A stretch of 63,740 nt of DNA, counting the filler, from Ferroacidibacillus organovorans (GTDB lineage: Bacteria > Bacillota > Bacilli > Alicyclobacillales > SLC66), in NCBI RefSeq assembly GCF_001642725.1. It is 3 parts of 3 records of this genome, joined end to end, with 100 filler letters (N's around TTAATTAATTAA, not from the genome) between each part and the next. Parts side by side here need not be neighbours in the genome. Positions count along the whole stretch, not along the records: positions 47,909 to 63,740 come from NZ_LSUQ01000060.1; 2 more parts are not named here. One strand, 5' to 3'. The position numbers and the translations under genes are program-made. The notes under the pieces are model-generated. The model worked only from the letters and a program-made list of their open reading frames with translations, ran no database searches and was not told the origin of the DNA. Below, piece by piece: positions 10,044 through 63,740 of the stretch (the stretch's first letter is position 1; every line of letters begins with the position of its first letter).

Positions 10044-11231
10044 TCAGGCGTTTGTTGTAGATCCTACAGCCGTAGACGTCGTAGTGGTTGCGTTTACGGT
10101 TGGATTCTTTGCTTTAAAGACATGATTAAGTACGTTCGGCAGCTTGGCGTCGATTTTCTGCCCAATCGTGGTCACTTGCGTAGCGGTCAGGTGGCCACTA
10201 GCCTCAGCCTTGGCGAGGCGCGCCGCGACGAGCGCCTGTGCGTCAGAGAGTAGGGTACTGCTTGATACGCCTTGTGCAGTCGCAATCTGATTGAGCGATT
10301 GGCCTGCGCGAAGGTCGGCGCGCAGCGTCTTTGCGGGCAGCTTCAAATCGCTGGCGAGCCCTTTAACGAGATCCATCGGGCTGCCTGCAAAGCCGTGACG
10401 ATGCGCCCCCGTCTTATGCGCGCCCGGTTTAAAGGTGTGGGCGAGCAGGGTGGGCAGCTTGGCGTCGATTTTCTGCCCAATCGCGGTCACTTGCGTAGCG
10501 GTCAGGTGGCCACTAGCCTCAGCCTTGGCGAGGCGCGCCGCGACGAGCGCCTGTGCGTCAGAGAGCAGGGTACTGTTTGATACGCCTTGTGCAGTCGCAA
10601 TCTGATTGAGCGATTGGCCTGCGCGCAGGTCGGCGCGCAGCGTCTTTGCGGGCAGCTTCAAATCGCTGGCGAGCCCTTTAACGAGATCCATCGGGCTGCC
10701 TGCAAAGCCGTGACGATGCGCCCCCGTCTTATGCGCGTCCGGTTTAAAGGTGTGGGCGAGCAGGGTGGGCAGCTTGGCGTCGATTTTCTGTTCAATCGCG
10801 GTCACTTGTGTAGCGATCAGGTGGCCACTAGCCTCAGCCTTGGCGAGGCGCGCCGCGACGAGCGCCTGTGCGTCAGAGAACAGGGTACTGTTTGATACGC
10901 CTTGTGCAGTCGCAATCTGATTGAGCGATTGGCCTGCGCGAAGGTCGGCGCGCAGCGTCTTTGCGGTGATGTGAAGATCTGCCGCCAACGCCTTTGCGTC
11001 AACACCTCCCATGAATCTGTGATGCCCATGCATGCCGTGATGTCCGTGCCGGGCGTTGCTTGATTTTGTCGCAGTCTGAGAGGATGCAGTAGGCTTTGTC
11101 GTAGCTTGGTTTGACGCAGTCGACGTCGTCGAGGTGGAATTGGTTGCGGCGAACGCGCCTGCTCCTCCGAAACCGGCCGACCCGAGAAGAGCGAGTGCTA
11201 TCATGCTGATCGTGAATTTCTTTGAAGTCAT
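10044..11231 (-). CDS. Secreted helical protein with three ~105-aa repeats and His-rich linkers
   Basis: Sec signal (…GAFA|A), S/T-rich ends, HGHHGMHGHH, and three repeats of LRADLRAGQSLNQIATAQGVS…LAKAEASGHLTATQV. Confidence 0.85.
   Translation of the reverse strand: MTSKKFTISMIALALLGSAGFGGAGAFAATNSTSTTSTASNQATTKPTASSQTATKSSNARHGHHGMHGHHRFMGGVDAKALAADLHITAKTLRADLRAGQSLNQIATAQGVSNSTLFSDAQALVAARLAKAEASGHLIATQVTAIEQKIDAKLPTLLAHTFKPDAHKTGAHRHGFAGSPMDLVKGLASDLKLPAKTLRADLRAGQSLNQIATAQGVSNSTLLSDAQALVAARLAKAEASGHLTATQVTAIGQKIDAKLPTLLAHTFKPGAHKTGAHRHGFAGSPMDLVKGLASDLKLPAKTLRADLRAGQSLNQIATAQGVSSSTLLSDAQALVAARLAKAEASGHLTATQVTTIGQKIDAKLPNVLNHVFKAKNPTVNATTTTSTAVGSTTNA
10138..10966. repeat. Near-identical 315-bp intragenic tandem repeats (~2.6 copies)
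   Basis: GGCAGCTTGGCGTCGATTTTCTG recurs at 10138, 10453 and 10768. Confidence 0.93.
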
Positions 11232-24063: not shown

Positions 24064-24163
24064 NNNNNNNNNNNNNNNNNNNNNNNNNNNNNNNNNNNNN
24101 NNNNNNNTTAATTAATTAANNNNNNNNNNNNNNNNNNNNNNNNNNNNNNNNNNNNNNNNNNNN
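24064..24163. other. Artificial contig linker (N + TTAATTAATTAA + N)
   Basis: 100-nt spacer with an all-frame stop insert. Confidence 0.97.
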
Positions 24164-47808: not shown

Positions 47809-47908
47809 NNNNNNNNNNNNNNNNNNNNNNNNNNNNNNNNNNNNNNNNNNNNTTAATTAATTAANNNNNNNNNNNNNNNNNNNNNNNNNNNNNNNNNNNN
47901 NNNNNNNN
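47809..47908. other. Artificial contig linker
   Basis: N + TTAATTAATTAA + N. Confidence 0.97.
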
Positions 47909-49857: not shown

Positions 49858-51636
49858 TTGGAATGGACGCGCTTTAAAGAGAAACTCGCGCTGATTCCCG
49901 AGCGTCCTGGTTGCTATTTGATGAAGGATGAAACCGGTAAGGTCATCTATGTCGGCAAGGCCAAGGTGTTGCGGAATCGGGTGCGCTCCTATTTTACCGG
50001 GAGTCATGATGGAAAAACGCAGAGGCTCGTCTCACACATTCGGGATTTCGAGTACATCGTTACGGACACGGTTTCTGAGGCGCTCGTTCTTGAGTGCAAT
50101 TTGATCAAACATCACACGCCGCACTACAACATCTTGTTAAAAGATGACAAGACGTATCCGTATATCAAGATCACACGCGAAACGCATCCGCGACTTGAAA
50201 TTGTGCGAAAGGTGCAGAAGGATCGGGCGGCCTATTTCGGTCCGTATCCAAACGGTGGCGCGGCCGCAGAGACCAAACAATTGCTCGATCGTTTGTATCC
50301 GCTGCGCAAGTGTAAAACCTTAAAGCCAAAAGTCTGCCTCTACTATCACATTGGGCAGTGTCTTGCCCCTTGCGAGTTTGAGGTAAACGAGGATGAGTAT
50401 CAAAAGATCTCCCGGGAAATCAGCGAGTTTTTACAGGGCGGGCATCAGCGCATCACAGATGAGTTGGTGAAGCGCATGGCCTTTGAAGCGGAGCAGATGA
50501 ATTTTGAGCGCGCGGCGGAATTGCGTGATCTGATTGCGCAGATTCACGCAGTGATGGAGACGCAGAAGGTGACACTGCCCGATCGCGTCGATCGCGATAT
50601 CTTTGGCTCCTATTCGCATCAAGGCCATCTCAGTATTCAGGTGTTCATGATGCGCGGTGGTAAGTTGGTGGAGCGATCCGCGACCGTCTTTACACATTAC
50701 GGTGACGAATCGGATGACTTAACCTCCTACATTACGCAGTTTTACCAGGACAATCCGGATATTCCAAAAGAAGTATGGCTTCCTGAAGGGGTAGACGCAA
50801 CGGGGCTCGACGCCATTTTGCACGCGAAGGTGTTGACTCCCAAGCGCGGAAAAAAACATGAACTCGTTGAGCTGGCGTGCCGCAACGCGCGGATTGCCCT
50901 CGAAGAGCGTTTTCGCCTGCTTGAAAAGGATGAGAGCCGCACCGTCAGCGCGATGCAGGCACTCGGAGAAGCGCTTGGGATCGACGCCCTCCATCGAATT
51001 GAAGCGTTTGACAATTCAAATACGCAAGGCACAGACCCGGTTGCCGCGATGGTGGTCTACGTCGATGGTCAAGCGGTACCAAAAGAGTATCGCAAGTATA
51101 AGATCAAGACGGTGGAAGGACCTGACGACTATAAAAGCATGCGTGAAGTGATTCGTCGCCGCTATACGCGACTGTTGCGCGAACAACAACCGCTACCGGA
51201 TCTGATTATGGTGGACGGTGGGCGGGGGCACATTACTGCGGCGCTTGATGTGCTGGAAAATGAGTTATCCATTCAAACGCCTGTTTGCGGCTTGGCAAAA
51301 GACGATCGGCATCGCACCTCTCAACTTTTTCTCGGCGATGATTCGGAGCCGATTCGACTGGATCGTAACGCCCCGGCGTTTCATCTCTTGACGAGAATTC
51401 AGGATGAGGTGCATCGATTTGCGATTACCTTTCACAGAAACACGCGCGGGAAAAATTCGCTTCAAAGTTTACTCGATGAGATCCCGGGTGTTGGTGAGGC
51501 GCGTCGCAAGCATTTGTTGCGCCATTTTGGATCGCTTACCGAGATGCGACAAGCGCCAATCGAAGAATTTCGCAAAGCGGGTGTCGGAGATCGATTAGCA
51601 AAGCAGATCAAGGCGCATCTCGCGAGCCTTTCGTGA
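49858..51636 (+). CDS. uvrC: Excinuclease ABC subunit C
   Basis: PGCYLMK…YVGKAKVLRNRVRSYF, RIEAFDNS, DGGRG, IPGVG. Confidence 0.96.
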   Translation: MEWTRFKEKLALIPERPGCYLMKDETGKVIYVGKAKVLRNRVRSYFTGSHDGKTQRLVSHIRDFEYIVTDTVSEALVLECNLIKHHTPHYNILLKDDKTYPYIKITRETHPRLEIVRKVQKDRAAYFGPYPNGGAAAETKQLLDRLYPLRKCKTLKPKVCLYYHIGQCLAPCEFEVNEDEYQKISREISEFLQGGHQRITDELVKRMAFEAEQMNFERAAELRDLIAQIHAVMETQKVTLPDRVDRDIFGSYSHQGHLSIQVFMMRGGKLVERSATVFTHYGDESDDLTSYITQFYQDNPDIPKEVWLPEGVDATGLDAILHAKVLTPKRGKKHELVELACRNARIALEERFRLLEKDESRTVSAMQALGEALGIDALHRIEAFDNSNTQGTDPVAAMVVYVDGQAVPKEYRKYKIKTVEGPDDYKSMREVIRRRYTRLLREQQPLPDLIMVDGGRGHITAALDVLENELSIQTPVCGLAKDDRHRTSQLFLGDDSEPIRLDRNAPAFHLLTRIQDEVHRFAITFHRNTRGKNSLQSLLDEIPGVGEARRKHLLRHFGSLTEMRQAPIEEFRKAGVGDRLAKQIKAHLASLS

Positions 51637-51723: not shown

Positions 51724-51839
51724 CTCTTATCGAGAGTGGCGGAGGGACTGGCCCTTTGAAGCCCGGCAACCTTCCAGCGCCTACATGGCCTGGATCGGTG
51801 CCAATTCCAGCAGGACAACTGTGTCCTGAAAGATGAGAG
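51724..51839 (+). ncRNA. SAM-I (S-box) riboswitch
   Basis: CTCTTATCGAGAG…GAGGGACTGGCCC…GCAACC…GGTGCCAATTCC…GAAAGATGAGAG upstream of metX; TTGACA-17-TAATGT promoter in front. Confidence 0.95.
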
Positions 51840-54502: not shown

Positions 54503-55120
54503 TTGGCAAGTGCGCCAGTCAACCGCGATTATCTATTTCGCAGGCTTCATACGTTGTCAGGTGTTATCCCTGTTGGTCTGTTTTTGATTGAGCATCTCAT
54601 CACCAACTCGACTGTGACGATGGGGGCAGGCGCGTATAATGCGGCTGTCAATACGATTCAACATATTCCCTACTTGCATGCGGTTGAATTTTTGTTTATT
54701 TTTCTGCCTCTTATTTATCACGGGGTGTTTGGCTTGTATGTCGCGTACACGTCAGGCTATAACCCTGTACAGTACACGTGGTTTCGCAATCGCATGTTCG
54801 CACTGCAACGCATCACGGGCGTTATAACGTTTATTTTTATCGTGTATCATCTCTGGACAACCCGTTTTAGCGGGAGTGCCCCGAGCTTTGCGTTTGTGCA
54901 CCATCTCGTGAGTCAGCCGTTCACGTTCTGGTTTATGATGATCGGTGTCGTGTCGGCGACATTTCACTTTGCCAATGGCATGTGGTCGTTTCTGGTGCAC
55001 TGGGGCTTTACCGTCGGCGCGCGCGCGCAACGCGTTTCTGCGATTGTCATGATGACGCTTTTCTTGATCCTGGCGTTTATGGGCGTTGATTCAATCATCA
55101 CGTTTGCGTATGCGGCGTAA
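54503..55120 (+). CDS. sdhC: Succinate dehydrogenase cytochrome b558
   Basis: RRLHTLSGVIP, YHG, QRITG, FHFANG. Confidence 0.93.
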   Translation: MASAPVNRDYLFRRLHTLSGVIPVGLFLIEHLITNSTVTMGAGAYNAAVNTIQHIPYLHAVEFLFIFLPLIYHGVFGLYVAYTSGYNPVQYTWFRNRMFALQRITGVITFIFIVYHLWTTRFSGSAPSFAFVHHLVSQPFTFWFMMIGVVSATFHFANGMWSFLVHWGFTVGARAQRVSAIVMMTLFLILAFMGVDSIITFAYAA

Positions 55121-55156
55121 CGGTTTGGAACTGCATAAGGTATTGGAGGAATCGAG

Positions 55157-56914
55157 ATGGCATCGCAACGGATGATCGTTGTCGGCGGTGGACTTGCAGG
55201 GCTTATGGCGACGATTAAAATCGCTGAGTCTGGAACGTCCGTCGACCTGTTCTCGATCGTTCCCGTAAAACGCTCTCACTCCGTGTGTGCACAGGGTGGG
55301 ATCAACGGAGCGGTTAACACCAAAGGTGAAGGAGACTCGCCTTGGGAGCATTTTGATGACACGATTTATGGTGGAGATTTTCTCGCGAATCAACCGCCTG
55401 TTCTCGGCATGTGCGAAGCGGCGCCAGGCATTATCCATCTGCTCGATCGTATGGGTGTCATGTTCAATCGCACGCCTGAGGGACTGCTCGATTTTCGTCG
55501 CTTTGGCGGTACAAAGCATCATCGCACGGCGTTTGCCGGGGCGACGACAGGTCAGCAACTGCTCTATGCGCTGGATGAACAGGTGCGCCGCTATGAGGCG
55601 GCAGGGCTCGTCAACAAGTTTGAGGGCTATGAGTTTATTTCGGCAGTCATTGACGACGATCAGGTCTGTCGCGGAATTGTCGCACAGAATTTGCGCTCGA
55701 TGGAGATTCAAGCGTTTCGCGCAGATGCGGTGATTCTGGCGACCGGAGGACCTGGCATCGTGTTTGGCAAAAGCACGAACTCGATCATCAATACGGGTAC
55801 GGCCGCGTCTGCAGTCTATCAGCAAGGCGTTACGTATGCGAATGGCGAGTTTATTCAAATTCACCCTACGGCGATTCCCGGCGATGATAAACTGCGTCTC
55901 ATGTCTGAGTCGGCGCGCGGTGAAGGCGGTCGCGTCTGGACGTATAAGGATGGGAAACCGTGGTATTTCCTTGAAGAAAAATATCCGGAGTACGGCAATC
56001 TCGTGCCGCGCGACATCGCGACGCGGGAGATTTTCTCTGTGTGTGTGGATCAGAAACTCGGGGTCAACGGGGAGAACATGGTTTATCTTGACGTGTCACA
56101 CATCCCCGCATCGGTGCTCAATGTAAAATTGGGCGGGATTCTTGAGATTTATGAGAAGTTTGTCGGTGACGACCCGCGCAAGGTTCCGATGCGCATCTTC
56201 CCGGCTGTGCACTATTCGATGGGCGGAATTTGGGTCGATTACGATCAAATGACAAACATTCAGGGACTGTTTGCCTGTGGCGAGTGTGACTATCAGTATC
56301 ACGGGGCGAATCGCCTCGGCGCAAACTCGCTGCTCTCCTCCATCTACGGCGGCATGATCACAGGGCCGTCTGCTCTGCGGTACGCAAAAGGACTGCGCAA
56401 GGGAGCGGATCAGGTGCCAGCTTCCGTCTACGAGGCGGCGCAACAGCGGGAACAGGAAAAGTATGATGGGCTCTTGGCGATGCGCGGGACGGAGAACCCC
56501 TACGTGATCGGACGTGAACTCGGACAGTGGATGACCGATAATGTGACGGTTGTTCGCTACAATGACCGATTGCAAAAGACGGATGAAAAGATTCAAGAGT
56601 TGATGGAACGCTACAAAAAAATCAATATGGCGGACACGTCGCGGTGGCAGAATCAAATGGTGCCTTATACGCGTCAGTTGTGGAATATGTTAGAACTGGC
56701 GCGCGTGATGACGATTGGCGCGCTACTGAGGAATGAGAGCCGCGGGGCTCACTATAAACCAGAGTTTCCAAATCGCGATGACGAAAACTTCCTGAAAACC
56801 ACCATGGCGGATTGGACGCCGGACGGTCCGCGCATTTCGTATCAGGACGTGGATGTATCCCTGATTCGACCGCGCGAGCGACGCTATGATGTCAGTAAGG
56901 AGGCGACGGTGTAA
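55157..56914 (+). CDS. sdhA: Succinate dehydrogenase flavoprotein
   Basis: RSHSVCAQGGIN, QIHPT, HYSMGG, HGANRLGANSL. Confidence 0.97.
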   Translation: MASQRMIVVGGGLAGLMATIKIAESGTSVDLFSIVPVKRSHSVCAQGGINGAVNTKGEGDSPWEHFDDTIYGGDFLANQPPVLGMCEAAPGIIHLLDRMGVMFNRTPEGLLDFRRFGGTKHHRTAFAGATTGQQLLYALDEQVRRYEAAGLVNKFEGYEFISAVIDDDQVCRGIVAQNLRSMEIQAFRADAVILATGGPGIVFGKSTNSIINTGTAASAVYQQGVTYANGEFIQIHPTAIPGDDKLRLMSESARGEGGRVWTYKDGKPWYFLEEKYPEYGNLVPRDIATREIFSVCVDQKLGVNGENMVYLDVSHIPASVLNVKLGGILEIYEKFVGDDPRKVPMRIFPAVHYSMGGIWVDYDQMTNIQGLFACGECDYQYHGANRLGANSLLSSIYGGMITGPSALRYAKGLRKGADQVPASVYEAAQQREQEKYDGLLAMRGTENPYVIGRELGQWMTDNVTVVRYNDRLQKTDEKIQELMERYKKINMADTSRWQNQMVPYTRQLWNMLELARVMTIGALLRNESRGAHYKPEFPNRDDENFLKTTMADWTPDGPRISYQDVDVSLIRPRERRYDVSKEATV

Positions 56915-57696
56915 TGGCAATTTCAGAACAGGAAGCTGCGGAGAAGCGATCGCCAAAAACCGTTCATCTCATCATCGAGCGACAAGTGTCGGCTGACGCC
57001 GCGCCTTATACAGAGGAATTTGAAATCGCTTGGCGCCCGGGTATGAACGTAATTGCAGCGCTCATGGAGATTCAGCGCAATCCGGTAAACGCAAAAGGAC
57101 AAGATACGAATCCGGTTACCTGGGAGTCGAACTGTCTAGAAGAAGTTTGTGGCGCGTGCACCATGGTGATTAATGGGAAACCGCGTCAGGCGTGCTCGGC
57201 GCTTGTTGACAAGTTGACGCAGCCGATCCACTTGAAACCGATGCGCACCTTCCCGGTGGTTCGCGATTTGGTGGTGAATCGCTCGCGCATGTTTGAAACG
57301 CTCAAGCGTGTCAAGGCGTGGGTGCCGATCGACGGTACGTACGATCTGGGTTCGGGTCCACGCATGGCAGAGTCGGAGCGACAGTGGGCGTATGAGCTCT
57401 CAAAATGCTTTACGTGCGGATCATGCGTAGAGGCGTGTCCGAATGTGAATGAAAAGACTCACTTTATCGGTGCTTTTGCCATCTCGCAGGCGCGACTCTT
57501 CAATACACACCCGACAGGTGCCATGCATAAGGAAGAGCGTTTTGAGGCGATGATGGATGAAGGCGGGATTCATGAATGCGGCAACTCGCAGAATTGCGTC
57601 CAGGTCTGTCCGAAGGGAATTCCACTGACAACGTCGATTGCGGCGATGAATCGCGATGTCAATCGACACGCCTTTTCTAGTTGGTTGAAAAAATAG
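56914..57696 (+). CDS. sdhB: Succinate dehydrogenase iron-sulfur subunit
   Basis: CLEEVCGAC, CFTCGSCVEACP, CGNSQNCVQVCP. Confidence 0.96.
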   Translation: MAISEQEAAEKRSPKTVHLIIERQVSADAAPYTEEFEIAWRPGMNVIAALMEIQRNPVNAKGQDTNPVTWESNCLEEVCGACTMVINGKPRQACSALVDKLTQPIHLKPMRTFPVVRDLVVNRSRMFETLKRVKAWVPIDGTYDLGSGPRMAESERQWAYELSKCFTCGSCVEACPNVNEKTHFIGAFAISQARLFNTHPTGAMHKEERFEAMMDEGGIHECGNSQNCVQVCPKGIPLTTSIAAMNRDVNRHAFSSWLKK

Positions 57697-59641: not shown

Positions 59642-61204
59642 TTACGACAACGTTGCAACGCGAATCAATCCGTCTGGCACATAGTTGAAACCGTGGATGG
59701 ATGAATTGAACGCAAGCACGTTGTTAGGATGGTACAAAAAGATGTACGGTGAATCGTGGTTGATGATCGCGACTGCTCTCTCATAGAGATTCGCGCGTTG
59801 CGTCATATTCGAAACGGTGCGCGCTTGATTGAGCAGCGCGTCGACTTGCGGATTGCTATAGTTTGATGAATTCAAAGGCGCGCCAGTGTAGTAGAAGGAG
59901 TAGATGTTTTGATCAGGGTCGAGGCGACCACTCCAGCCGAGTGCGAGTGCTTGGAAGTTTCCATCAGAAGAGTTGTTTAAAAGTGTCCCGAAATCCAATT
60001 GTTGAATGTTCATTTTGATGCCGTACGGCTGAAGCATCGCCTGCATGACCTCGGCGAGTTGTACGTTGATCGGACTGTTCGCGGTTTGCATTGTAAATGT
60101 GAATCCGTGTGCTTCGCCGCCGCGCTTTAGCAGCGCGCGAATTTGTGCCGGATTGACGTTTGGCGGGGTGTCCTCAGCTTTGCGATAGGCAGGGGAGGAC
60201 GCACCGAATGGACTGTAGCCGGGACTCGCCGATCCTTTTAAGACGGCGTTTACGAGCGCTTGGCGATTGATTGCGTAATTGACGGCTTCGCGCACAAACA
60301 GATTGGTAAACGGCTTTGCCTTCACATTCAGATAAACGCCTTGATAGCCAAAGCTAGGTTTGTTGATCACCGTATAGCCAGGCGTTTTTGCAAGTGTCGC
60401 AATCTGTTGCGGCGGCACGGTATCAATGATTTGGACTTCATTCGATTGTAGATTCAGGAGTTCTACGTTTGGATCGGTAAAAATTTTGTAGACGACTTTT
60501 TGGAAATGGGGCAATCCTTTCATCCAATAATGTGGGTTTTTGACGAGCGTAATGCTCGATCCAATGACGCGGGATACATACTCATAAGGGCCTGTTCCGA
60601 CGGGGTGATTGAGGAAGTTCGCGCCCTCTTTTTTTACCGCAGTCGGTGAAACCATCATCCCAGCTCGTCCAGACAACACGTTGAGGAGCGGGCTGAACGG
60701 TTTTGACAGTTGAATCGTAAGCTTATAGGGACCATCGACAGTAACTTTTGAGATGAGTGACAAGGAGCTGTGGCGCGGTGAGATTTTCAGCATGTCGCGT
60801 TCAAGATTGAACTTTACTGCAGTGGCGTTAAACGGCGTTCCGTCTTGAAATTTCACGCCTTTTCGAAGGGTGATGGTGTAGGTCAGTCCATTTTTAGAAA
60901 TGACTGCGCCTGTGGCGAGATCGTTTTGCAATTTTCCTGCTGCATTAATCGTAAAGAGTGAATCGTAAATGTTGACCATGACCTGGCGATCAACCAATGC
61001 GCTAGAGAGGCTGGGATCCAGTTTCGGTGGATCGGCGCTGAGTCCAATCGAGAGTGTTGACAGAGCACTTGAGCGCAATGCGGAAGCATGGTGAGCGGTG
61101 TGTGTGTGGGCGCTTGCGAATGCCGGGAAGCTTGTGGCGAGTGAGAGTACAGTCGCCGCAACGGCAAGGCCAGTGCGCTTGCTGTACGTCATGGATCGTT
61201 TCAT
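59642..61204 (-). CDS. ABC substrate-binding protein, family 5
   Basis: LRKGVKFQDGTPFNA, PVGTGPY, VREAVNYAINR; Sec signal without a lipobox Cys. Confidence 0.9.
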   Translation of the reverse strand: MKRSMTYSKRTGLAVAATVLSLATSFPAFASAHTHTAHHASALRSSALSTLSIGLSADPPKLDPSLSSALVDRQVMVNIYDSLFTINAAGKLQNDLATGAVISKNGLTYTITLRKGVKFQDGTPFNATAVKFNLERDMLKISPRHSSLSLISKVTVDGPYKLTIQLSKPFSPLLNVLSGRAGMMVSPTAVKKEGANFLNHPVGTGPYEYVSRVIGSSITLVKNPHYWMKGLPHFQKVVYKIFTDPNVELLNLQSNEVQIIDTVPPQQIATLAKTPGYTVINKPSFGYQGVYLNVKAKPFTNLFVREAVNYAINRQALVNAVLKGSASPGYSPFGASSPAYRKAEDTPPNVNPAQIRALLKRGGEAHGFTFTMQTANSPINVQLAEVMQAMLQPYGIKMNIQQLDFGTLLNNSSDGNFQALALGWSGRLDPDQNIYSFYYTGAPLNSSNYSNPQVDALLNQARTVSNMTQRANLYERAVAIINHDSPYIFLYHPNNVLAFNSSIHGFNYVPDGLIRVATLS

Positions 61205-61388
61205 TGTGGACCCCCTATTGGTCGATGTATTCTATGCTTTCTGTTGGTTCTGGTTAAAAGATAGCATAGAATTCGCGAATTTGTCCAAGCAATGTTACGA
61301 GAATAGACAAGATTTGCGTCTAATTGACCGTTTTGCGTATCTTTGTTGAGGGTTATGGATTGTGGTTGCCCATTCTGCGCGGGTTCCT

Positions 61389-61418
61389 GCACGCAAGAAT
61401 TTCGGCCCTCATACAATA
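61389..61418 (+). promoter_or_regulatory. Sigma-K-like promoter of gerE
   Basis: GCAC-N17-CATACAATA matches the sigma-K consensus AC…CATANNNT. Confidence 0.6.
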
Positions 61419-61477
61419 CCGTAACTGTATCCCTGCACCTTGTGCTTGATGGATAAATGCAAGGAGGGATAGCGCCA

Positions 61478-61648
61478 GTGTCAGCGGGAAGGGAATACCG
61501 CATGAAATCGCTGCTGACCATACGAGAACGAGAGGTCTTTGAGTTATTGGTTCAGGATAAAACGACTCGAGAAATCGCGGAAATCTTGTACATCAGCGAA
61601 AAGACCGTGCGGAATCATATCAGCAATGTGAGATGGGCAATGGGGTGA
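61478..61648 (+). pseudogene. gerE: 5' portion of sporulation regulator GerE (split or truncated)
   Basis: LLTIREREVFELLVQDKTTREIAEILYISEKTVRNHISNV is nearly identical to GerE, then RWAMG* replaces MQKLGVKGRSQAVVELLRMGELEL; strong AAGGAGG RBS; native uvrC-sdhCAB-gerE synteny. Confidence 0.88.
61616..61635. mobile_element. Putative attL of a gerE-intervening element
   Basis: Imperfect palindrome CATATCA-gcAAtg-TGAGATG centred where GerE homology ends. Confidence 0.5.
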
Positions 61649-61697
61649 AATGAAGCGTCATGCTGAGACGGGCAGAACTAGGCCACGCGGAGCTTAC

Positions 61698-61756
61698 TTG
61701 ACGTCGGGATTTTACTCGACTATGATATCGATAATCGTGAATATCGACGACGATGA
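61698..61756 (+). promoter_or_regulatory. Sigma-A promoter and probable ArsR operator
   Basis: TTGACG-17-TATGAT, followed by two ATATCGA…TGA units with 16-bp period. Confidence 0.6.
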
Positions 61757-61813
61757 ATGTCGGTGGTTGTGAATAGGGGGGATGACTTGAAAGGGAACGA
61801 TTTGGAGGTACAA

Positions 61814-62233
61814 ATGGATCAAGAATTGTTGCGCGCGCGACTGAGTGCGCTCGCCGATCGAAGCCGCTTTCACATTTTGCAAATCATGGCCAACGGCGCG
61901 ATCGGTTCGTGCTGCGACCGCATAGCGGCGTATGAAAACGGTTGTTGTGTCGCGGATGTGGTGGCTGAAACAGGGCTAGCGCAACCGACGGTGTCTCATC
62001 ATTTAAAGGCGCTTGAAAAGGTGAATCTTGTGCGACGGGAAGTGCGCGGGCCGTGGACGTGTTATTTTCCTAACCCAGAAGCGATTGAAGAGATTTCGCA
62101 CGGCTTGCGCGGCTCTTTGATCCTAAAGCGTAAGGATCAGAATGAACATGGGAATCGGGATATCGTTTTGTCAGACTCTTTTTTCGATGAAGAGAAACGC
62201 TGCGCGGAGCTGAAGAACGGCTGTTGTACATAA
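61814..62233 (+). CDS. arsR: ArsR/SmtB-family metalloregulator, Cys-rich
   Basis: ALADRSRFHIL, CCVADV, QPTVSHHLKAL; GGAGG RBS; upstream of arsB. Confidence 0.85.
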   Translation: MDQELLRARLSALADRSRFHILQIMANGAIGSCCDRIAAYENGCCVADVVAETGLAQPTVSHHLKALEKVNLVRREVRGPWTCYFPNPEAIEEISHGLRGSLILKRKDQNEHGNRDIVLSDSFFDEEKRCAELKNGCCT

Positions 62234-62322
62234 TTGCGCAGAGCATCAACGAAGGAAGAAGACCCGTTCACAGAACAAATCATTCGATACGTATTAAGAT
62301 CAATATCCTAAGGAGTCACTGC

Positions 62323-63615
62323 ATGATCTATCTTTCCATTGGCGTTTTTATCGCCACGCTCATCTTTGTCATCTGGCAACCTCGAGGGTTATCCATCGGT
62401 TGGAGTGCGTTTGGCGGGGCTGTCCTCGCACTGCTGCTTCATATCGTCACATTTTCTGATGTTTTTGTCGTCACGTCGATTGTATGGGACGCGACGCTCG
62501 CATTCGTTGGGATAATTATATTCTCAACCGTCCTTGATCGCATCGGTTTTTTTGAGTGGGCCGCTCTCAAAATGGCGGTTGCCGCAAAGGGGGATGGGCG
62601 AAAGGTCTTTTTCTTTGTCATCTTGCTCGGGGCGATCGTCTCTGCGTTTTTCGCGAATGACGGTGCCGCGCTCATTCTCACGCCGATCGTGCTTGAGAAG
62701 GTGAAGTTGCTAAAATTCGATACGAAAAAAATGCTACCATTCATCATGGCGAGCGGCTTTATCGCAGACACCACATCGCTTCCCTTTGTGACGTCAAACC
62801 TTGTAAACATTGTTTCGGCCGATTATTTTCATCTCGGTTTCGTAACGTATCTTCTGCACATGGTAATCCCTGATCTCGTTTCACTTTGCGCAAGCATGCT
62901 CTTTTTGTACATCTTCTTTCGACGCGACATTCCGACGTCGTATAATCCAGGCGATCTTCCCGACCCGCGTCACGCGATTGTCCACGAAGGCATGTTCAAA
63001 GCGTCGTGGGTGATTCTTGTTATTCTGCTCTTTGGATACATTCTCACGGAACTGTTGCATATTCCTGTCTCATCCGTTGCGGGACTCATCGCGATCGTCT
63101 TTCTTATCGCAGGTGCACGGGCCAACGTCATTCAACCGTGGCGTGTCATCAAAGACGCGCCGTGGGCGATCGTCGTCTTTTCCATTGGAATGTACGTGGT
63201 GGTGTACGGGTTAAAGAACGCAGGGCTTACGGCATTGCTCGGTCACGTCATCCGCGCAAGCACGCACGGAGGTCTCTTTGCGGGGACGTTGGCCACCGGG
63301 TTTATCGCCGCGCTTCTTTCATCCGTGATGAACAACATGCCAACGGTGATGATCGATGCGCTTGCCATTCACGCATCTGGCGTGACTGGGGTGATGCAAC
63401 ACGCATTGATTTATGCCAATGTGATCGGTTGTGATCTCGGGCCAAAAATCACACCCATTGGTTCACTCGCCACGCTTCTTTGGTTACACGTGCTCCGCCA
63501 AAAGGGGATCACGATTCGGTGGGGCAACTACTTTCGCACAGGACTCCTCCTCACGGTACCCACACTTTTTGTCACGCTCTCGGGACTTTACGCGTGGAGT
63601 CTTTTCATTCATTAG
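62323..63615 (+). CDS. arsB: Arsenite efflux pump ArsB
   Basis: [49 protein letters not shown]. Confidence 0.93.
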
Positions 63616-63632
63616 AAAACGGAGGGAACATC

Positions 63633-63740
63633 ATGCAAAAAAAAATAATTTATTTTTTGTGCACTGGGAATTCGTGTCGCAGTCAAATCGCTGAAGGGTT
63701 TGCGCGGCACTTTGGCGGAGACCGATTGGTGGCCTACAGC
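63633..63740 (+). CDS. arsC: Thioredoxin-dependent arsenate reductase (partial)
   Basis: [25 protein letters not shown]5R P-loop; runs off the window. Confidence 0.9.

Follow-up and report, generated by a model that had tools for sequence, protein, structure and literature searches.

gerE of Ferroacidibacillus organovorans is split by a probable sporulation-excised element that carries arsenic-resistance and vitamin-pathway genes

The 63,740-nucleotide stretch of Ferroacidibacillus organovorans DNA analysed here (from assembly GCF_001642725.1; hereafter the window) ends inside a 12.6-kb element that splits the gene gerE. We consider it very probable that this is a gin-like, non-phage gene-intervening element, which integrated in an Asn codon of gerE and which would be excised in the sporulating mother cell, restoring the gene. 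The reading is carried by the split itself and the presence of both gene halves, by a large serine recombinase (LSR) encoded beside the 3' half, by the symmetry of the element's ends, by its cargo, and by conservation of the arrangement in a sister species, with purifying selection on both gene pieces. From these we infer that excision takes place, when and in which cell it happens, and what a small open reading frame (ORF) next to the recombinase gene does. The locus displays several features of the sporulation gene-intervening class: a mother-cell gene is interrupted, its pieces are co-oriented and can be rejoined, the intervening DNA encodes its own recombinase, and the two ends share a short attachment-site (att) core.

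The window joins three contigs of a 98-contig, 3.03-Mb assembly (96.8% complete) with N spacers between them: C38 (1-24063), C39 (24164-47808) and C60 (47909-63740; NZ_LSUQ01000060.1). The gerE/ars locus lies entirely within C60, whose end is the window's final base, and the remainder of the element is found on contig C40 of the same genome. The split gene consists of the following features:

61391..61418, plus strand: sigma-K-like promoter of gerE, made up of AC (61391-61392), 17 nt and CATACAATA (61410-61418)
61478..61630, plus strand: gerE 5' segment, GTG start, 51 codons ending ...RNHISNV, matching the intact GerE of relatives up to the break
C40:10516-10596, same orientation as the 5' segment once C60 and C40 are joined: gerE 3' piece, identified by profile match and reading

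The first-pass annotation of this DNA had described gerE as broken after ...RNHISNV at an att-like palindrome, behind a sigma-K-like promoter and a strong ribosome-binding site, and each of these features is present. The promoter resembles the sigma-K consensus and presumably functions as such; the ribosome-binding site AAGGAGG occupies 61461-61467, and the likely GTG start at 61478 is also the start in the sister species. Past the break, the gerE frame enters the element, where five foreign residues (RWAMG) precede a stop at 61646-61648, and of the 57 positions of the Pfam GerE profile the 5' piece matches only 2-42. Searched with the same profile, the complete assembly yielded a 28-residue open frame at C40:10510-10563 that corresponds to profile positions 38-55. 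The 3' piece reads N-V-M-K-K-L-N-V-K-G-R-S-Q-A-V-V-E-L-V-R-L-G-E-I-Q-I-stop and supplies the last 24 codons of gerE, which are absent from the 5' piece. Rejoined, the two give an in-frame gene of 75 codons whose product is exactly the intact GerE of relatives (...RNHISNV followed by MKKLNVKGRSQAVVELVRLGEIQI), as the proposed comparison with relatives required. The other proposed check, for an intact copy elsewhere, found no second gerE in the assembly, where the Pfam GerE search gave, above noise, only four response-regulator-sized genes and the two pieces. A GC-rich, terminator-like hairpin with a T run directly follows the 3' piece, and ynfA comes after it.

The ars operon at the end of the window and the recombinase gene on C40 belong to the two ends of one 12.6-kb element, since C40 opens with the remainder of arsC and its first 10 bases are the window's last 10. 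A single 318,792-bp contig of the sister species (G001) holds the entire region and aligns colinearly with C60 and then C40 (C60 13898-15813 aligns with L073 4526-6440, and C40 6-11010 with L073 6455-17485); the joint falls exactly at the position that the 10-bp overlap predicts. The overlap and this colinearity thus define an element that runs from window position 61627 to the window end and on through C40:11-10517, with 12,621 bp between its two central AA dinucleotides. The gerE break is situated 2.1 kb inside C60, away from the contig joints, and the left junction also occurs within single contigs of two other, independent metagenome studies: a 4,196-base contig of run X5 that spans 60800-63740 and a 10,578-base contig of run X6 that spans 60800-62317.

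The left boundary is annotated as follows:

61603..61648, plus strand: attL, left arm of gerE coding sequence, core AATGT (61625-61629), central AA (61625-61626), right arm formed by the element end GAGATGGGCAATGGGGTG

The break coincides with an imperfect palindrome, CATATCA (61616-61622) and TGAGATG (61629-61635), around the AA at 61625-61626, which is part of the Asn codon in the Ile-Ser-Asn conserved in gerE. The attR site on C40 has the core AATGT in common with attL, with the AA as symmetry centre. Moreover, the element-side arms of attL and attR are inverted partners at 14 of 22 positions, a value reached by none of 2000 shuffles, and the corresponding arms of the sister species match at 16 of 22. 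All nine elements tested have ends inverted about the central AA (12-16 of 22 positions, compared with about 6 in shuffles; 0-12 of 2000 shuffles reach the observed value). Judged by this symmetry, the element ends look like an attP site.

Comparison of the two species indicates that the split gene is in use. Their DNA is 77-79% identical in the element and 80-85% in the flanks. Within the 3' piece (26 codons), eight base changes in seven codons are all synonymous, and the 5' piece (51 codons) differs at 3 of 153 bases, giving two synonymous codons and one non-synonymous codon (Glu/Asp). In the LSR gene, 224 codons are identical, 157 differ synonymously and 157 non-synonymously. Because the changes in the gerE pieces are nearly all synonymous despite the 77-79% identity of the element, the codon comparison shows purifying, protein-level selection on both pieces while split, and since all seven changed codons of the 3' piece are synonymous, gerE is evidently still used. 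Judging from these codons, a gerE that had been dead since before the species split would not show such a pattern. The element is colinear in the two species and as diverged as its flanks, which argues for long vertical descent. By its gene content the host is a spore-former, since spo0A, spoIVA and a sigK-scoring gene are present in the genome.

Two genes just inside attR complete the recombination unit:

C40:8593-10209, minus strand: large serine recombinase, 538 amino acids, on the strand opposite the gerE 3' piece and about 300 bp upstream of it
C40:10216-10431, minus strand: small ORF, 72 amino acids, its stop 3 bases ahead of the LSR start codon

The LSR features a resolvase domain with a serine nucleophile (residues 4-156; Pfam Resolvase, E 1e-26), C-terminal to which lie a Recombinase domain (PF07508, 178-297) and a zinc ribbon (PF13408, 311-373), and its 538 residues are close to the usual length of about 500. 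All seven orthologues compared have the catalytic Ser of YVRVST and its flanking Arg, and from the full architecture and the invariant Ser the enzyme looks active. Its nearest phage relatives are integrases of Paenibacillus larvae phages (H1-H15, such as Likha, Xenia and Shelly), at about 31% identity over 96% of its length. With the 3' gerE piece, a serine recombinase and a matching attR all located on C40, the earlier proposal that the window holds the left end of a gin-like element is borne out. As a side observation, the genome has 14 further tblastn matches to this LSR, 12 of them over 280 residues, with three on C22 and two on C41; the contigs with further serine recombinase genes are C22, C41, C72, C69, C46, C43, C56, C15 and C68.

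The small ORF is directly upstream of and co-oriented with the LSR gene in all seven clade elements examined (20-56% identity), an adjacency that corresponds to the layout of known rdf-int units (PMC6957869). A confident AlphaFold2 model of its product, with a mean predicted local distance difference test score (pLDDT) of 77.9, combines a beta-hairpin with a long helix. Between attR and the small ORF, the two species share 91% identity, and this stretch contains a -10-like motif (CATACCGT here, CATACAGT in the sister species) that resembles the -10 element of mother-cell sigma factors. Such a CATAC-type motif was detected by regular expression 17-54 nt before the small ORF in five of the seven elements, and the remaining two have a motif, found by eye, that reads GCATAC or GCATAT; a sigma-70 scan gave no site before the small ORF. 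A possible mother-cell promoter just inside attR therefore probably drives the small ORF and the LSR gene.

The element is ordered attL, arsR-arsB-arsC, thiC, cob cluster, 72-residue ORF and LSR, attR, followed by the gerE 3' end. Its cargo comprises:

61698-61726, plus strand: sigma-70-like promoter before arsR, TTGACG-17-TATGAT, 10 of 12 consensus matches; a consensus match only
61814-62233, plus strand: arsR, ArsR/SmtB metalloregulator, 139 amino acids (Pfam HTH_5, E 1e-10; NCBIfam NF033788, 59.4 bits, cut-off 55)
62323-63615, plus strand: arsB, ArsB-type arsenite efflux pump, 430 amino acids (Pfam ArsB, E 7e-177; NCBIfam NF011980, 647 bits, cut-off 457)
63633-63740, plus strand: arsC, thioredoxin-type arsenate reductase, first 36 codons, continuing at C40:1-322
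C40, minus strand: thiC, with a thiamine pyrophosphate riboswitch in front (C40:2252-2359)
C40:2554-2740: cobalamin riboswitch, then cobB-cobQ-cobO-cbiB-cobD

A new vegetative-type promoter and arsR-arsB-arsC had been noted after the break, and the promoter match and the Pfam and NCBIfam assignments agree with this; repressor, pump and reductase stand in one unit, as in an ars operon. The reductase is divided between the contigs, with Pfam LMWPc positions 1-22 matched in the window and 35-143 on C40, and just the C-terminal 106 residues give a TIGR02691 score of 154.7, where the cut-off of 174.3 applies to a whole protein. In the cob cluster, cobO encodes a PduO-type adenosyltransferase and cobD a CobD-like decarboxylase (260 bits, under the cut-off of 290.55). 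Because thiC and five cobalamin genes are also carried, the cargo is more than arsenic resistance. The first-pass annotation's "skin-like arsenic cargo" thus holds for the ars operon, but the pump is ArsB and not Acr3, and the cargo extends beyond arsenic. Second copies of arsB, arsC, thiC, cobB, cobQ and cbiB were not found in the 96.8%-complete assembly; CobS and CbiC, further steps of the B12 pathway, are encoded on other contigs of the genome. In the closed Alicyclobacillaceae genomes G022 and G026, thiC is located 0.8-0.95 Mb from gerE. No phage, conjugation/transfer or replication genes were detected among the element's ORFs by Pfam and NCBIfam scans.

These properties place the element next to gin of B. 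cereus ATCC 10987, which was shown by experiment to recombine within 9 bp encoding Ile-Ser-Asn 47-49, with AA as the predicted cut site (Abe et al. 2017, PMC5595907). Like gin, the element is a non-phage island with a large serine recombinase (GirC in gin). It interrupts gerE at the Ile-Ser-Asn codons that gin uses, and in both an imperfect inverted repeat is centred on AA, the presumed crossover (PMC5595907). Gin needs a small accessory protein of no known family, GirX, and one is suspected here (PMC5595907); GirX has 42 residues and girX lies in the BCE4620-4625 region, whereas the present candidate has 72 residues and abuts the recombinase gene. The two also differ in scale and content: gin is given as 28.6 kb with 31 genes, including girA/girB/girC, recJ and a restriction-modification system (PMC5595907), whereas the present element has 12.6 kb, one recombinase, and metabolic and resistance cargo only. 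The set of three serine recombinase genes and recJ common to all gin elements is missing from it, as Pfam and NCBIfam scans of its ORFs gave one recombinase and no RecJ. The host order, Alicyclobacillales, differs from gin's as well. On this comparison, the element is best described as one that probably works like gin and uses gin's site but is distinct from gin.

A similar mixture of likeness and difference applies to skin of B. subtilis, also a sporulation-gene element with a large serine recombinase, whose cargo includes arsR, an arsenite pump and arsC (PMC12607644; PMC6957869). Skin, however, resides in sigK with SpoIVCA as its recombinase and is described there as a 42-kb phage remnant with an Acr3-type pump (PMC12607644), whereas the present element is in gerE, has an ArsB-type pump and had no phage genes in our scans. 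Independently of the gerE element, a sigK-like gene of the same genome is also split, at C17:34688-41592, its 5' piece matching TIGR02846 9-122 and its 3' piece 110-226. The roughly 6.2 kb between these pieces contains a LacI-type regulator and a sugar ATP-binding cassette (ABC) transporter (binding protein and two permeases), and also encodes a 503-residue serine recombinase, so that the island is skin-like and its cargo metabolic; C81:3192-3854 holds an unsplit gene above the sigK cut-off.

SPbeta, inserted in spsM of B. subtilis, is an active 134-kb phage. It has the same attL - rdf - int - attR layout (integrase SprA and SprB), and its host gene is rejoined during sporulation (PMC6957869). 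The SPbeta integrase is described as constitutive, with only rdf under sporulation control (PMC5595907), whereas here the small ORF and the recombinase gene look like one operon. What is notable about the present element is its single-copy vitamin-pathway cargo with riboswitches, its descent common to two species, and the breadth of the family to which it belongs.

Taken together, we propose the following scheme. In growing cells and in the forespore, the element would stay in place, and because of this gerE would be off and the cargo would be inherited. Expression of the small ORF and the LSR gene would take place in the mother cell, probably from the mother-cell-type promoter just inside attR; such expression is expected because of the rdf-int layout, the 91% conserved stretch and the recurring -10-like motifs. 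With the small protein acting as directionality factor, the LSR would then recombine attL with attR at the central AA, releasing a circle and restoring the 75-codon gerE behind its sigma-K-type promoter.

Several observations weigh against this scheme. Contigs assembled from four runs contain the integrated form only, with no joints or loose ends at 61625-61630, although these contigs neither support nor refute excision, since contigs drop rare forms. The small ORF belongs to no known family in Pfam and NCBIfam scans, and its eight relatives in a profile search are all unnamed or 'hypothetical' and all from Alicyclobacillales. It evolves fast (25 identical, 12 synonymous and 34 non-synonymous of 71 codons aligned with the sister species), and its modelled fold has no Foldseek match in the PDB at E <= 0.001 (best E 2.6). 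The promoter proposed for it is read from the consensus match of a short -10-like motif, with no convincing -35 element in the attR-to-ORF stretch, and the same stretch contains a TTGACA hexamer that, with a long spacer, could be a vegetative promoter.

This hexamer would also suit a general integrative mobile island that merely uses gerE as its att site and excises for transfer or at random, so that gerE would be restored in few cells. We regard this explanation as improbable, though it has some support: serine integrases often target conserved genes, cargo differs widely among species, and in the LSR tree described below one LSR from the window's family is grouped with one from Alicyclobacillaceae (99/94), an interleaving that fits some horizontal spread. 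However, the scans of the element's ORFs gave no transfer, replication or phage genes, its colinearity and flank-like divergence in two species point to long vertical descent, and purifying selection on both gerE pieces requires regular rejoining. In spore-formers, gene rejoining is known to occur in the mother cell (PMC5595907; PMC6957869), and gin was found to be excised only once sporulation had begun and only in that compartment.

Considerably less likely is that gerE is dead, the island being fixed and no longer excised, in a host that sporulates without GerE or not at all. The contigs give no direct evidence of excision, and the assembly lacks a second gerE, both of which this explanation would accommodate. 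It is opposed by the ratio of synonymous to non-synonymous codon changes between the two species (7 to 0 in the 3' piece, 2 to 1 in the 5' piece), by an LSR frame that is intact with all domains in both, by the symmetric ends and the retained promoter, ribosome-binding site, hairpin and T run, and by the presence of spo0A and spoIVA. Finally, an assembly artefact, in which 61630 would be a chimeric joint or C60 and C40 would be wrongly paired, has next to no probability: the window is concatenated from contigs and the element extends over two that overlap by only 10 bp, but the check for a chimera found the same junction, 2.1 kb inside C60, in the X5 and X6 contigs and in the sister species, where a single contig carries the complete element in unchanged order and the joint falls where the overlap predicts.

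The splitting of gerE extends well beyond this genome. Among 41 Alicyclobacillales genomes surveyed (own included), 39 have a gerE match; the gene is broken at the same codon in 12 of these and intact in 27. Both pieces were recovered in 11 of the 12 split genomes, the twelfth being 60% complete. By host family, gerE is split in 9 of 17 genomes of the window's own family and in 3 of 22 of the other, and an LSR of the same clade (46-73% identical) is present in 10 of the 12. The LSR gene was found beside the gerE 3' piece in Sulfoacidibacillus thermotolerans Y002, Alicyclobacillus fodiniaquatilis, A. acidiphilus and A. mengziensis (L080, L082, L085, L086). The order's elements range from about 4.1 to about 33 kb, and their cargo varies, including a sulfocyanin-domain protein, amino-acid permeases, a LysR regulator, a class A penicillin-binding protein and a glucuronate-utilisation cluster.

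When 401 Bacilli species were sampled, an LSR matching the clade profile at E <= 1e-70 was encoded in 61 genomes, this one among them. Of these LSR-bearing genomes 44 lie outside the order; in 28 of the 44 the best GerE match reaches only half strength, and at least 17 of those 28 are verified splits: ten by the 3' piece read beside the LSR gene, and seven by gerE pieces that lie kilobases apart or on separate contigs, with the LSR gene between them or beside the 3' piece. We further built a maximum-likelihood tree of 32 LSRs, from which seven paralogue loci (L064, L066-L070, L072) were excluded as their N-terminus was not matched by the motif pattern. A single branch (95/87; recovered in 96% of bootstrap trees) separates all 25 LSRs from split-gerE genomes, which represent many Bacilli families, from the other seven, which come from genomes with an intact gerE (6) or without a gerE match (1). 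Within the 25, the LSRs of the order group together with 100/100 support, and this subclade mixes the two host families. A separate arrangement was seen in another Bacilli family, at G287:C1:5558304-5582098, with one gerE 5' piece and two 3' pieces about 4.9 kb apart (5558304, 5563188); since the recombinase gene lies between the 5' piece and the two 3' pieces, these may be two tandem elements.

The survey also bears on novelty. Our literature searches gave no paper that describes elements splitting gerE in Alicyclobacillus or its relatives. The novelty claimed in the first-pass annotation was overstated, because gerE-splitting elements with the same recombinase clade are common in the order and beyond. 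It is the breadth of this gerE-targeting recombinase clade that is unreported.

The surroundings of the locus were annotated as follows:

49858-51636: uvrC, upstream of gerE
54503-57696: sdhCAB, upstream of gerE

The gene order given earlier, with gerE after uvrC and sdhCAB, is correct, but the genes are not directly adjacent: uvrC is separated from sdhC by a hydrolase gene and hom, and sdhB from gerE by an opp-like ABC transporter of three genes on the minus strand. An S-adenosylmethionine riboswitch (93 bits; window 51724-51839) precedes the hydrolase and hom genes upstream of sdhC, and a cyclic di-GMP-I riboswitch (66 bits, minus strand; C40:12076-12171) is located about 1.5 kb downstream of the gerE 3' piece. 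Elsewhere in the window, a self-comparison with the assembly revealed a perfect 1,260-bp tandem duplication (297-1556 and 1557-2816, 100% identical) and, at 10138-10966, repeats that are 96-98% identical and about 315 bases apart. The N spacers occupy 24064-24163 and 47809-47908; the window holds 177 N in total, and no synteny applies across the spacers.

The distribution, with one recombinase clade throughout and purely cellular cargo, suggests that gerE splitting is a common and old phenomenon and not a curiosity. Tentatively, and with rather more doubt than confidence, we envisage the recombinase unit at the gerE Asn codon as an old, largely inherited fixture of spore-forming Bacilli, a docking bay for germline-only cargo that turns over from species to species, while unit and site remain fixed, and that now holds indispensable, sole-copy metabolism. 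If so, growing cells and spores would retain the cargo in the bay, the mother cell would lose it from its chromosome on schedule, and in this genus, where the bay holds the genome's only thiC, cobB, cobQ and cbiB with their riboswitches, the host could not lose the island. Single-copy vitamin-pathway genes and arsenic resistance would thus reside on DNA programmed for discard in one cell type. The family provides a natural series for studying the long-term target-site fidelity of serine recombinases, and offers candidate directionality factors that are unnamed in databases. For the organisms themselves, automatic annotation will label gerE a pseudogene in these acidophiles, though they probably sporulate normally.

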